DNA of 64,000 nt, taken from a marine bacterium B5-7 (GTDB taxonomy: Bacteria; Pseudomonadota; Gammaproteobacteria; BQJM01). The DNA lies in assembly GCA_021604705.1 (NCBI GenBank), contig BQJM01000001.1:72887-136886 (forward strand), given 5' to 3'. A program made the position numbers and the translations under genes. Every line of letters starts with the position of its first letter. Position 1 is the stretch's first letter. The notes under the pieces are model-generated. The model did no database searches. It was not told the origin of the DNA and was given only the letters and a program-made list of their open reading frames with translations. Below are positions 2,792 through 12,113 of this stretch, piece by piece.

Positions 2792-3742
2792 CTAATGGTT
2801 CTGGCGCCGTAGTTGCAGAACCTCAGCCACTTTAAACCCCGTGGCAGGATTGCGTTGGATAAACACGATTAAATCCACGGCTTGCTCGACAACAGAAATA
2901 GGTGCTGCGGGTAAAACTTCTTGGACTAAGTGATGTAAACGCAACAAGGTATCCTGTGCGCTATTAGCATGCACCGTGCAGATGCCGCCGGGATGACCCA
3001 TGTTCCACGCTTTTAACATCGCTAAGGCTGCACCATCGCGAACCTCTCCAATCACGATACGATCGGGGCGCATGCGTAAAGCACCTTTGACTAAGTCATG
3101 CATGGACTTGTTGGGAGAAGTGCATAATTTCACATGGTCAACAGCGGCAACTTGTAACTCAGGGACATCTTCAATCACGAGAATGCGTTCTTGCGTTTCT
3201 GTTAATTCAGCGAGCAGGGCATTGGTGAATGTGGTTTTACCTGAGCCCGTTCCACCAGCTACAATAATGTTTTGTTTATTCTGTATCGCGGTTTTTAATT
3301 GCTGGGATTGTTCGGCTGTCATTTGATTTGCACTGACATAATTGTCTAGAGAAAAAATTTGGCTGGCGGGTTTTCTTAGGGTAAAACAGGCTTCGCTCAC
3401 CACGGGGGGGAGCCAACCTTGAAAACGAATACCTATGTTCGGGATTTCACAGGCGAGCTCCGGATTGTTGGCATCAACGATCATGTGATGATGAGATGCT
3501 AGCAGTTTAATAATGTTTTCACGCTGCACGGTAGAAAGAATCACGGTTAGAGATTTTTTTCCGCGGGATAAATATTCTACCCAGACTTTTCCATCAGGGT
3601 TAACCAATACTTCCACGACGAGGGATTCTTGTAGTTCACGTGTGATGGCTTCCCCTAGGGCATGCTGCAGCAATGCTTGGAAACGATCTTGGCTACCGCC
3701 GTCACCCCGGGCTTGACCCGGGGTCTCCTTGCTATTCCCCAT
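2792..3742 (-). CDS. virB11: T4SS ATPase VirB11/TrbB
   Basis: Walker A GGTGSGKTT and the VirB11/CpaF architecture. It is the last gene of the virB operon. The N-terminal 15 codons are encoded by a REP element (3701..3728). Confidence 0.9.
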   Translation of the reverse strand: MGNSKETPGQARGDGGSQDRFQALLQHALGEAITRELQESLVVEVLVNPDGKVWVEYLSRGKKSLTVILSTVQRENIIKLLASHHHMIVDANNPELACEIPNIGIRFQGWLPPVVSEACFTLRKPASQIFSLDNYVSANQMTAEQSQQLKTAIQNKQNIIVAGGTGSGKTTFTNALLAELTETQERILVIEDVPELQVAAVDHVKLCTSPNKSMHDLVKGALRMRPDRIVIGEVRDGAALAMLKAWNMGHPGGICTVHANSAQDTLLRLHHLVQEVLPAAPISVVEQAVDLIVFIQRNPATGFKVAEVLQLRRQNH

Positions 3743-4820
3743 GACCTTTTCCCTGCTGCTTCATCTGCTTAAACGCATCACGAACCTGCGCTAGCGTTTT
3801 ATCTGATACACTTTTTAGGGTGTTGCGATCACGCTTCGATAAACCCGTATTAGCTTGTGATGTTTTCACCTGTACGGTGCTAGCTGCCGCTTGTGTTGCA
3901 TGGGCTGACAAGTGCGTGGCTTGTTGTACGGCCTGAGTTGCTTGTGCAACGGATGTAGGGGCTGCATGCATCGTGCTTGTCATGGCTTGTGCCGATGTTG
4001 TTGTGTTCACCACGGTAGTCGTACCAGAATCGGTTGCTGCGCCGGGGATCACCATTGTTCCTAAAAGATTACCCGCTAATTTCGGTAATTGATGTAATAA
4101 ATAAGCCAAAGCGAGGCTTGCAAGAAAAACACCCATCGCGAAATTAAAGGGATAAGGTGCAGCTAAACTAGGAATACGCAAATGCATCCATAGCCCGTAG
4201 GCTAAACCCCAAACAATCAGCATGGTGGCTAAACGGATCCCCATACTCAGTAAACTCTGAAATATCTGTGTCGACCAATGTTTAAAATGATGCAGCATAC
4301 TGAAAGGTAGTAATAACAAGCCAAACAAGCCTACCAAGTAAAAAGCCGCGTACTGCAAAACAATATTCAAAATCATCCAGCCGATGCTAAACAGCGTGCC
4401 AAAACCAATAATTAAATTAATGGCAGGGATTTTCAGTTGCGAAGCGCTGGTTTGCAGCGATTGGAAAACATGCGTGCTAAACATATACGCTAAGTCCCAT
4501 AGTTTCATGAGATGATGCGCACTGTCGGGTTGTTGATGTACATCTTGGCTGACTTGTAAGAAGCTAGCGAGTATCCAGTGTAAACCATCATTTAAATGAA
4601 AAATAACAAAGAACAAAAAGCTGAGTTTCATCACATCCAACAATAATTTTCGCCATTGCGGCTCTTGTTGAATAGCCCACAGTAAACCAAATAAGGCGAA
4701 TTCCATGCCGGAGAAAATATACAGTAAATGTAATGCGTATTGTGTTACGTGGCCGTAGCCATGCCTAATATGGTCGACAAGTTGTGTTTGTAATGTTTGT
4801 AAAATATTGGCATCTATCAT
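3732..4820 (-). CDS. virB6: T4SS inner-membrane protein VirB6/TrbL-like with a Ser/Thr/Ala/Gln-rich C-terminal tail
   Basis: About 250 aa of polytopic hydrophobic segments followed by a low-complexity hydrophilic tail. Sits between virB10 and virB11. The 4-nt ATGA overlap with virB10 suggests translational coupling. Confidence 0.6.
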   Translation of the reverse strand: MIDANILQTLQTQLVDHIRHGYGHVTQYALHLLYIFSGMEFALFGLLWAIQQEPQWRKLLLDVMKLSFLFFVIFHLNDGLHWILASFLQVSQDVHQQPDSAHHLMKLWDLAYMFSTHVFQSLQTSASQLKIPAINLIIGFGTLFSIGWMILNIVLQYAAFYLVGLFGLLLLPFSMLHHFKHWSTQIFQSLLSMGIRLATMLIVWGLAYGLWMHLRIPSLAAPYPFNFAMGVFLASLALAYLLHQLPKLAGNLLGTMVIPGAATDSGTTTVVNTTTSAQAMTSTMHAAPTSVAQATQAVQQATHLSAHATQAAASTVQVKTSQANTGLSKRDRNTLKSVSDKTLAQVRDAFKQMKQQGKGHGE

Positions 4821-10643: not shown

Positions 10644-10661
10644 GGCAATCGCCTCCTTAAT

Positions 10662-12113
10662 TTATCCGTTTAGTGCATCCAATAACGAATGTTGGGTATC
10701 TGAGGGGGCAACGTCTCCGCGTAATTCCCACATAATCACACCACCTAGGTCATTCGTTTTTACATATTGTGCGAGTGCTTTTGCATAATCGGCATCCGCA
10801 TACGAGATATACACTTGCGAATACTGGGCGCTGGAACCAGGGGGTACCCAAGCCGCAGGATTGTAAGCCCACACAGCATTCACAATACCATCATGTTGTG
10901 CATCTTTCATCTGATAAGCTGTAAAACCTTGACCAAGCATATGATTGACGATGTAGCTGTATTGGAAACCACCCATGCAGCTGCCGCCTGGTGTCATCGT
11001 ACACTGCGGTTCATCCAAATCACCGCGGGCAATGCCGTTGAATGATTGATACAAGCCATGTTGATCGCCAGCGGGTACGCCAGTGAGTGTGCGGCCATAG
11101 GCGGGAATACCCGCCAGGATTTTATTGGCCGGAATACCTTGAGCTTCTAAGGCTTTTACGGCTTTTTCTACACTGAACTCTTTCTCACCATAAGAACTGT
11201 TCGGATCAGCATACAAGCTGTTGTTGAAGCCAGTTTTCCCATTCACGTCAAAGCCACCATGGAAGTCATAGGCCATCAAGGAAATGTAGTTGACATCAGC
11301 TGAGATGCTTTTCCAGTTGTTGCCAACCGTTGCAACCCAACCCGCATTGGCAGGAATGGGCATGCTGATGATAATGTTTGGTAAGGCTTGACGTAAGCGT
11401 GAAATCAAGTTGGCGTAATTGTTTGCATCGTCTGTTGTGATGGTGCCGGCAGGGGGCTCAAAATCTAAATCGATGCCATCAATGCCACTTGCATTCACCA
11501 GTGCTACGATAGAACTCACGAAATTATTTAAGTGTGTAAACGCACGATGAAAATCGTCATCGTGACCATAACCACCGATGGAAATAAATTTTTGCAGATT
11601 ACCTTTTGTGTTGTTTAAATCTAAAAACGCCTGAAAATTGCCTTTAGGGTGATTCCATTGGTCAGCAGGAACATTCTTTCTAGGTTTAAATGTGGTATCG
11701 CCGGGCGTGTAACTCCAACAAATTGGTGCAGTGTTTGTATTGCTGCATAGGCCACCGTTACCAAAGAAAATGTCGTTATGTTTGAAGTTTTTGTCGTTAC
11801 GCAAATCGCTCCAGTTATCAGAAAAATGTACGCGGCCCATGTTGTCGACTTCAAAAAAATCATAAGTTAAAGCATTAATTTTTTCGAGTTTAGCTTGAAC
11901 ATCATCGTTACGGACGACACCCTTATTATCCATACTGCCCGGTAAACCATAATCTGCTTCTGGAATGGCGCGACCAGATTTGTCATTAGAATATACATTC
12001 CAATTGGACCAATAAGCCATGATGAGCGGTTGTGGGTTTGAAACTTTGGGTGTGGCGAAGGCGGTGGTGCTGGTAAGGCAAGTAGCAAGAAGAATGGTTT
12101 TGAATAATTTCAC
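10662..12113 (-). CDS. Secreted glycoside hydrolase family 18 chitinase
   Basis: Sec signal peptide (MKLFKTILLATCLTSTTAFA) and GH18 catalytic motif DGIDLDFE (DxxDxDxE). Only 18 nt upstream of virB2 on the same strand. Confidence 0.85.
   Translation of the reverse strand: MKLFKTILLATCLTSTTAFATPKVSNPQPLIMAYWSNWNVYSNDKSGRAIPEADYGLPGSMDNKGVVRNDDVQAKLEKINALTYDFFEVDNMGRVHFSDNWSDLRNDKNFKHNDIFFGNGGLCSNTNTAPICWSYTPGDTTFKPRKNVPADQWNHPKGNFQAFLDLNNTKGNLQKFISIGGYGHDDDFHRAFTHLNNFVSSIVALVNASGIDGIDLDFEPPAGTITTDDANNYANLISRLRQALPNIIISMPIPANAGWVATVGNNWKSISADVNYISLMAYDFHGGFDVNGKTGFNNSLYADPNSSYGEKEFSVEKAVKALEAQGIPANKILAGIPAYGRTLTGVPAGDQHGLYQSFNGIARGDLDEPQCTMTPGGSCMGGFQYSYIVNHMLGQGFTAYQMKDAQHDGIVNAVWAYNPAAWVPPGSSAQYSQVYISYADADYAKALAQYVKTNDLGGVIMWELRGDVAPSDTQHSLLDALNG

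Follow-up and report, generated by a model that had tools for sequence, protein, structure and literature searches.

Why should the gene of a secreted chitinase-type enzyme stand at the head of an operon for a type IV secretion system (T4SS)? The question is raised by a 64-kb stretch of contig BQJM01000001.1 of the marine bacterium B5-7 (hereafter the window, meaning the whole stretch of DNA analysed), in which nine tightly packed genes on the minus strand (2792-12113) run from a family 18 glycoside hydrolase (GH18) gene to trbC-D-E-F-G-I-L-B. A first-pass annotation had offered two explanations, that the enzyme takes the place of the peptidoglycan hydrolase VirB1, or that it is a dedicated substrate of the apparatus, as pertussis toxin is of the Bordetella Ptl system. 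The answer that we put forward, as a possibility to be held tentatively, is close to the second: the link between enzyme and machine may be one of Ptl-like export in two steps, in which a chitinase-type enzyme delivered by the Sec pathway is released from the cell by the T4SS.

The GH18 gene (10662..12113) ends 18 nt before trbC. The gap (10644..10661) holds the ribosome-binding site AAGGAGG and is too short for a terminator or a promoter; a consensus scan called neither a terminator-like nor a promoter-like site in it, which removes an objection that the first-pass annotation had foreseen. Because the gap contains a ribosome-binding site and no terminator, and because the adjacency is kept in relatives whose enzymes are 57% and 48% identical, GH18 is very likely a true member of the operon and its first gene, as had been proposed, and we infer its co-transcription with the trb genes. 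The remaining layout, read earlier as virB2 followed by B3-B4-B8-B9-B10-B6-B11 with abutting or overlapping genes, was borne out by Pfam and NCBIfam profiles, and all these junctions abut or overlap once the starts are refined by homolog alignments (TrbE M26, TrbF M11 and TrbG M12).

Close relatives of the enzyme are few, only five proteins of 40-57% identity being present in the protein database (P0002-P0006). The gene of P0002 (57%) lies 11 nt upstream of trbC-D-E-F-G-I-L on the 95-kb contig L051, with the same arrangement on L052, and that of P0003 (48%) lies 115 nt upstream of trbC-trbD on L058, which then reaches its contig end. The search of related genomes suggested by the first-pass annotation has therefore recovered the GH18-trbC adjacency in L051/L052 and in L058. 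For two other relatives the adjacency is not readable: the contig of P0004 (47%, L053) stops in a repeat 118 nt past the GH18 stop, and that of P0006 (40%), one of two tandem GH18 genes, ends 83 nt after the gene. P0005 (44%) has no trbC in 390 nt of downstream sequence, and P0007 (39%) and P0016 (34%) are found in unrelated gene contexts. The repeat that ends L053 (9205-9293) is palindromic and is different from the palindromes of the window described below.

Beyond these relatives the pairing was not met. Among fifty distant GH18 loci with 10-kb flanks a Trb gene was in reach in a single case (L031), and in none was GH18 beside trbC. The L031 locus (180-11188), from a metagenome-assembled genome (MAG) of the Hyphomicrobiales, carries a canonical Trb cluster and, 2.3 kb beyond its trbI on the downstream side, a distant GH18 gene (23% identity); this proximity was judged to be chance, since Trb genes are missing from the surroundings of five related GH18 loci of Alphaproteobacteria. 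A genome-collection scan with GH18 returned only relatives of 32% identity or less, none adjoining trbC, and a viral-contig scan with the GH18 alignment returned only an unrelated GH18 of a giant virus. No further GH18-linked case came from a metagenome scan with TrbE, in whose closest matches (52-57%) the place ahead of trbC is taken by unrelated genes, for an AspBHI/Mrr restriction enzyme, a DUF2840 protein and a LuxR regulator. On the metagenomic contig L059, whose TrbE is 57% identical to that of the window, two consecutive VirB8/TrbF paralogs directly follow trbE (3266-4241).

Comparison of the window with L051 shows how tight the pairing is. The flanks of the block have been replaced (FRG, ATPase_2/DUF234 and orphan genes in the window, AbiEii, PemK and DUF2000 in L051) and with respect to tgt the block has opposite orientations in the two, yet the GH18-trbC join is still tight. 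The two enzymes are 57% identical, as against 39-79% for the T4SS parts (TrbE 61%, TrbI 58%, TrbF 54%, TrbG 46% and TrbL 39%), so that the divergence of GH18 is about equal to that of the machine. In the window the GC content of the GH18 gene (0.448) and its value at third codon positions (GC3, 0.432) match those of the T4SS genes and of housekeeping genes, and nothing indicates a recent insertion. Kept in three lineages, with GH18 identities of 100%, 57% and 48%, the pairing would seem to exceed chance; its simplest history is a single acquisition in a common ancestor, followed by selective retention in at least three descendant lineages, and the adjacency suggests that machine and enzyme work together.

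The enzyme itself is a protein of 483 amino acids, translated from a GTG start with GGAG ahead of it, and consists of a signal peptide and a single domain; it is 100% identical to the protein that NCBI lists for marine bacterium B5-7. That domain matches Glyco_hydro_18 (PF00704) over profile positions 2-317 of 317 with an E value of 7.8e-48 and 164 bits, against a cutoff of 29.6 bits. The signal peptide is predicted for residues 1-21 (12051..12113); its sequence, read directly from the translation with the following residues, MKLFKTILLATCLTSTTAFA/TP, is that of a typical Sec/signal peptidase I signal, the predicted cleavage falling before the T. Equivalent N-termini are present in all five close homologs, and in the structural model this region is a helix of low pLDDT followed by a disordered linker, which agrees with its reading as a signal peptide. 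The catalytic DxxDxDxE motif is DGIDLDFE (residues 212-219; 11457..11480), intact as first reported; D215, D217 and E219 do not vary in the six closest homologs, and E219 is unvaried across 35. The other motifs expected around the active site are all present and kept in the six closest homologs, namely SxGG with its aromatic residue (SIGGY), MxYD (MAYD), YGR (AYGR) and the C-terminal MWE tryptophan of the -1 subsite.

An AlphaFold2 model built on the 35 homologs (pLDDT 89, pTM 0.89) predicts a TIM barrel with an alpha/beta chitinase insertion domain. When it was compared with the PDB by Foldseek, the top matches were all solved chitinases or chitinase-like lectins (E value about 1e-25, target TM-score up to 0.84), the best being Bacillus thuringiensis ChiA74, Aspergillus fumigatus ChiB1 (AfChiB1), Serratia marcescens ChiA and Chitiniphilus ChiL (CsChiL), with Coccidioides immitis CiX1 also near the top; enzymes of the SleL type were not among the best 60 PDB sequence matches. 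The profile search and structural model that the first-pass annotation had called for thus agree, and the predicted groove is chitinase-like and not lysozyme-like. On profile, motifs and predicted fold the protein is placed in GH18 as a chitinase-type member of subfamily A. It looks like an active chitinase or chitodextrinase, with activity on GlcNAc-MurNAc (N-acetylglucosamine-N-acetylmuramic acid) bonds or on host glycans being possible. A domain search recognised no chitin-binding (carbohydrate-binding), LysM or peptidoglycan-binding module in the enzyme or in its longer homologs. An insertion of about 100 amino acids that follows strand 1 and includes a pair of conserved cysteines is found family-wide and does not set the T4SS-linked members apart. 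A loop of low confidence at about residues 134-152, common to the window enzyme and P0002 and the sole lineage-specific feature in the sequence, was considered as a T4SS-specific signature and rejected, as it is missing in the T4SS-linked P0003.

The secretion genes that follow are all of recognisable families. The pilin gene trbC (virB2; 10350..10643; 97 amino acids) has an ATG start and matches PF04956 (E value 1.3e-21), and trbD (virB3; 10091..10345; 84 amino acids) matches PF05101 (4.5e-11). The ATPase gene trbE (virB4) has an open reading frame from a GTG at 10173 to 7687, with the likely start at the ATG at 10098 (M26); this start is backed by the alignment to the L051 homolog, and the alignment to NCBIfam PRK13873 (1165 bits, cutoff 1020 bits) begins at residue 26. 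The frame of trbF (virB8; 6980..7714; PF04335, 5.8e-44; PRK13872, 203 bits against a cutoff of 152 bits) likely starts at the ATG at 7684 (M11), giving a product of 234 amino acids, the length of the NCBI-annotated P0041, and that of trbG (virB9; 6025..7023; PF03524, 3.2e-56; TrbG_Ti, 205 bits against a cutoff of 181 bits) likely starts at the ATG at 6990 (M12). They are followed by trbI (virB10; 4817..6028; 403 amino acids; PF03743, 7.2e-60), trbL (virB6; 3732..4820; 362 amino acids; PF04610, 1.5e-8, and TrbL_P at 1.2e-13, under the family cutoff) and, as the last gene of the operon, trbB (2792..3742), for the VirB11 ATPase of 316 amino acids (PF00437, 1.4e-38; TrbB_P, 345.7 bits against a cutoff of 304.6 bits), which is convergent with the next gene. 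Walker motifs are intact in both ATPases, with the Walker A sequences GPTGAGKS in TrbE and GGTGSGKTT in TrbB.

On these profile scores the machine is of the Trb family and not of the VirB family, because TrbE, TrbF, TrbG and TrbB exceed the NCBIfam equivalog cutoffs; its VirB10 protein scores 147 bits on T4SS_VirB10 as against 116 bits on ComB10. Canonical Trb operons have the order trbB-C-D-E-J-(K)-L-F-G-H-I, starting with trbB, and their transglycosylase TrbN, if present, stands at the far end. With respect to this order the operon of the window has no trbJ and no trbH, and has trbL and trbB moved to the end, so that trbL comes after trbI instead of before trbF. Homologs of TrbB, C, D, E, F, G, I and L, as known from the canonical Trb mating pair formation systems (Ti plasmid, IncP and integrative and conjugative elements of the Tn4371 type), are thus all present, and in distinction to those systems the operon is chromosomal, has GH18 at its head, and has neither TraG nor a relaxase. 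A Pfam scan of every open reading frame of at least 100 amino acids in the 64-kb window found no domain of soluble lytic transglycosylases (SLT/VirB1), VirB5/TrbJ, the type IV coupling protein (T4CP; VirD4/TraG) or relaxases, in agreement with the earlier statement that VirB1 and VirD4 are missing; nor did Pfam scans show a TrbH/VirB7 subunit in operon or window.

Five further lineages with related machines were reached via TrbF homologs: L086, L087/L088 (GCA_018812595.1), L089 (the 'GWF2_41_13' lineage), L090 and a 331-kb JGI contig (P0054). All these sister operons are chromosomal with housekeeping flanks and belong to uncultured Gammaproteobacteria. Their common order is trbC-D-E-F-G-I, a small secreted open reading frame and trbL, followed in some by a gene for a TraF-like S26 peptidase and trbB. 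No coupling protein, relaxase, TrbJ, GH18 or other hydrolase is encoded in any of the sister operons examined, and no hydrolase next to them; the flanks of the related loci showed no coupling protein or relaxase either. The operon starts directly at trbC, with no hydrolase before it, in L086, L087/L088, L089 and the P0054 contig; in L090 a cut at trbF hides the start. The window operon therefore belongs to a conserved, domesticated chromosomal Trb clade without T4CP, which is apparently undescribed. Judged by these gene orders, GH18 is a lineage-specific addition in one sub-lineage and not a replacement, because the sister operons begin at trbC with nothing in that position. The earlier idea that the enzyme occupies the slot of VirB1 has to be given up: the machine is Trb-type, and nothing was there to be replaced.

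Two further traits differ or agree within the clade. TrbC ends in a C-terminal GGAVF tail in L086, L087 and L089, each of which has the gene of a TraF-like S26 peptidase in the operon, and also in L058, whose contig ends before the peptidase position. The GH18-bearing sub-lineage is the more reduced: in the window and in L051 both the TrbC tail and the peptidase gene are missing, a correlated loss of the module for pilin cyclisation that points to a pseudopilus or to pilin in linear form. A T2SS (type II secretion system), comF and the small secreted open reading frame of the sister type are missing from the window too. The N-terminus of TrbG (6900-6990) carries a lipobox, LSLTA/C, then a linker of about 90 amino acids ahead of the CagX domain; the lipobox is found in five of six lineages (window, L051, L087, L089 and L090), and a lipidated TrbG/VirB9 may stand in for the missing VirB7/TrbH.

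Some sister loci carry additional genes. A ComF/ComFC-like gene (DZR_2 and phosphoribosyltransferase domains) is divergent from, and just upstream of, trbC in L086 (5070-5765, minus strand), L087 (about 6043-6726, minus strand) and L088 (about 6095-6778, minus strand); the identity between these two lineages, L086 and L087/L088, is 52%. Four additional genes stand between trbL and the S26 peptidase gene of L086 (14324-19481); they encode a secreted protein of 224 amino acids, two paralogous polytopic membrane proteins of about 530 amino acids that match no Pfam family, and a glycosyltransferase of family GT2. Proteins homologous to the membrane proteins (29%) are encoded in divergent orientation beside the T4SS-unlinked GH18 gene of P0016 in L055 (6589-8142), giving a three-way association of GH18, membrane proteins of the L086 type and T4SS.

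What the enzyme and the machine do for each other can be approached by way of the known system whose anatomy fits best. Ptl has VirB2, 3, 4, 6, 8, 9, 10 and 11, is without VirB1, VirB5 and VirD4, and exports its toxin by a two-step route (PMC8402538, PMC12857230). The component set of the window is that of Ptl apart from a separate VirB7 (PtlI), and the analogy suits the anatomy because a Sec signal, the absence of T4CP, VirB5 and VirB1, and a cargo-like gene at the operon head come together here. As with ptx and ptl in B. pertussis, a gene for a Sec-signal protein stands directly upstream of the T4SS genes in what would be the same transcription unit, and no extended pilus is expected; the loss of the pilin tail and of the TraF-like peptidase fits a non-piliated, secretion-type state. 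The differences are that the machine of the window descends from Trb (P-type conjugation) genes, with the order C-D-E-F-G-I-L-B, that its VirB9 is itself lipidated, to judge from the lipobox, where Ptl has a separate VirB7/PtlI, that the candidate cargo is a single-chain glycosidase and not an AB5 toxin, and that one relative (L051) has no VirB11 nearby.

The proposed export would run as follows. A catalytically competent, chitinase-type GH18 enzyme would be produced together with the domesticated chromosomal Trb machine, itself without coupling protein, relaxase, VirB5 and VirB1, and would be delivered to the periplasm by the Sec pathway. There the folded enzyme would be picked up and driven over the outer membrane via a TrbG/TrbI channel, with the push coming from a short TrbC pseudopilus and the power from TrbE and also, in operons that have it, from TrbB. 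Once released, the enzyme would have as its target either chitin or glycans that contain GlcNAc, on a host or a substrate.

Several observations weigh against such export. The state without T4CP and VirB5 is common to all the sister operons examined, in none of which GH18 is present, and the basic job of the machine is therefore independent of GH18. On L051 trbB/virB11 is not found within 10 kb. PtlH, the VirB11 of Ptl, is required in that system, and two-step export is rare among known T4SSs, which gives the proposal a low prior. Relatives of the enzyme at 44% identity or less stand alone, so that the family can work without an adjacent T4SS. The absence of VirD4, T2SS and VirB1 covers the 64-kb window only, and the source organism is an uncultured MAG. 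Of the earlier cargo proposal, then, the anatomical argument stands, as the Ptl pattern is the best fit to the gene content; the lack of VirD4, which had been taken as its mark, is shared with sister machines that have no GH18. That the operon represents a second, evolutionarily independent Ptl-type two-step T4SS, with a Trb machine doing a T2SS-like job on a folded chitinase and the T4CP-less Trb clade as an unrecognised family of periplasm-to-outside exporters, is a wider claim and a slightly less likely one.

Co-regulation without physical coupling has to be considered beside export, and is by our estimate somewhat unlikely. Here the T4SS would have another task, for example taking up DNA in the manner of ComB, adhering, or making contact with a host that has a wall or coat of chitin, and the chitinase would share its promoter for use in the same niche. 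The enzyme could clear a chitinous barrier for the machine, or could link the uptake of DNA with growth on chitin, as in Vibrio; it would be exported along a different path or be active on the cell surface. The machine evidently functions without GH18 in the sister lineages, and the enzyme family is also found as stand-alone genes. The core of the clade (C-D-E-F-G-I, small open reading frame, L), often without an adjacent TrbB, corresponds to the component set of Helicobacter pylori ComB, likewise a chromosomal minimal T4SS without VirD4, VirB1 and VirB5 (ComB composition: PMC12857230). The machine of the window differs from ComB, which has no VirB11 and no associated glycosidase, in keeping TrbB and in scoring best on Trb models, and Pfam scans found no comF, comEC or other competence genes in the window. 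The ComF/ComFC-like gene beside trbC in L086 and L087/L088 hints at a system for DNA uptake, but its adjacency may be chance, comF being a common gene of housekeeping type. A spacing of 11-18 nt and the retention of GH18 at the operon head also suggest more than loose co-regulation. A passive linkage, in which a chitinase gene landed once upstream of trbC in a common ancestor and has no functional connection with the machine, we regard as distinctly unlikely. One ancestral event does explain the three occurrences better than three independent ones, the organisms of the window and L051 are related (LepA 82%) with regional synteny near tgt and lepA, and in related lineages neither partner requires the other. 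Neighbourhoods that are not operons usually decay, however, at 48-57% protein identity, while here the flanks changed, the block was inverted and the GH18-trbC join remained tight; conservation of the signal peptide and of the catalytic residues is complete, and no terminator separates GH18 from trbC.

A role as a periplasmic, machine-specific murein opener, analogous to VirB1, TrbN or P19 and cutting GlcNAc-beta-1,4-MurNAc bonds locally for T4SS assembly, was the other proposal of the first-pass annotation, and appears unlikely. It would be compatible with any function of the T4SS, and dedicated murein hydrolases are common T4SS accessories. The position at the operon head, which is also that of virB1, and the Sec signal agree with it, an SLT-type enzyme is found nowhere in operon or window, and peptidoglycan is cut by a few members of GH18 (Bacillus SleL/YaaH and plant hevamine). 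The window enzyme has in common with the VirB1 group that a glycan-cutting protein exported by Sec is encoded together with a T4SS; VirB1, TrbN and P19 are, however, small SLT enzymes (GH23-like) and act non-hydrolytically on MurNAc-GlcNAc, whereas the enzyme of the window is a GH18 retaining hydrolase of 483 amino acids, far larger than typical VirB1-type enzymes, with a chitinase cleft. Its sole domain is the GH18 TIM barrel, with nothing SLT- or lysozyme-like; by predicted fold and by motifs it belongs with the deep-cleft chitinases of subfamily A that have an insertion domain, its top structure and sequence matches are true chitinases, and neither it nor its longer homologs have a LysM or peptidoglycan-binding domain. 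No hydrolase stands in or beside the sister operons, hence there is no slot to fill, close GH18 relatives occur away from any T4SS, and no report of GH18 in such a role was found in the literature. A VirB1-like role is chemically conceivable but disfavoured, because of the canonical chitinase architecture, the size, the stand-alone relatives and the sister machines without hydrolase.

In full-text literature searches that combined T4SS with chitinase or GH18, no paper turned up that reports a T4SS operon containing a GH18 gene, so that the earlier statement that the arrangement is undescribed for a GH18 enzyme holds as far as these searches reach. What comes nearest in the literature is a different situation, that of TfcB, a T4CP-dependent antibacterial effector of Stenotrophomonas with a GH19-like domain. 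Among virulence chitinases (L. pneumophila ChiA, Listeria ChiA/B and Salmonella ChiA) the likeness is that of a secreted GH18 in a probably host-associated bacterium; L. pneumophila ChiA is a T2SS substrate with no T4SS link, and is not among the top 50 structural matches of the window enzyme. A comprehensive T4SS review of 2025 mentions neither chitinase nor glycoside hydrolase (PMC12857230). What has been found is a T4SS that lacks T4CP and shares its operon with the gene of a Sec-dependent protein. Real and conserved as the arrangement is, and undescribed, it does not amount to a new category of system. How a T4SS takes up a periplasmic substrate is a long-standing question, for which pertussis toxin is essentially the sole clear case (PMC12857230). 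Were Ptl-like export of the chitinase true, a single-chain, easily assayed cargo and eight machine genes would make periplasmic substrate entry directly testable in a heterologous host; were the enzyme a murein opener, the cell-wall hydrolases specific to secretion systems would gain a new enzyme family. In both cases the analysis has brought to light T4SSs of Trb descent that have no coupling protein and form a conserved clade on chromosomes.

The intergenic region upstream of GH18 (12114..12309, minus strand) contains two strong hairpins (about 12247-12290 and 12200-12220), which start directly after the stop (12310) of the preceding orphan gene and are followed by about 90 nt before the GTG. 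The predicted RNA fold of the region has -82.6 kcal/mol (z = -6.6 against shuffles). The hairpins are REP-like palindromes, CTGTCATCCCGG...CCGGGATGACAG and ATCCCGGC...GCCGGGAT, the long form of which occurs once only in the window. A consensus scan found no sigma-70 site upstream of GH18; the spacer of about 90 nt holds, besides the GGAG, the sequence TGtTAATAT, a possible extended -10 element of the operon promoter. The hairpins would then mark a transcription boundary, with the promoter of the operon downstream of them.

The operon is chromosomal and surrounded by housekeeping genes, with tgt-yajC-secD-secF at 17493-21829, then lepA, rnc, era, glnS, thiamine genes, the mla cluster, mreBCD and gatAB. 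The LepA proteins of the window and L051 organisms are 82% identical, other LepA matches being at about 77%, and on LepA the source can be placed no further than as a deep unclassified gammaproteobacterium. The genes between the T4SS block and tgt (12310-17444) are of orphan or defence-like character, encoding two family-less proteins of 394 and 228 amino acids, a protein with an FRG domain and one of the ATPase_2/DUF234 type; another DUF234 fragment is present at the start of the window (13-636). The counterpart of this space in L051 contains AbiEii, PemK and AAA_14/DUF4143, and the space appears to be a variable island adjoining queA/tgt. Elsewhere in the window (31559-39175, 41281-42828 and 59593-61593) are large open reading frames without Pfam family (628, 453, 779, 518 and 666 amino acids) and the gene of a Fic-domain protein of 515 amino acids, and F-box and SET-domain genes are found in the relatives L051 and L055; together they look like the effector-rich genome of a host-associated bacterium. 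Upstream of lepA (23451-24240), overlapping Sdh5/SdhE-like and CptA-toxin-like reading frames form a toxin-antitoxin pair of the CptAB type.

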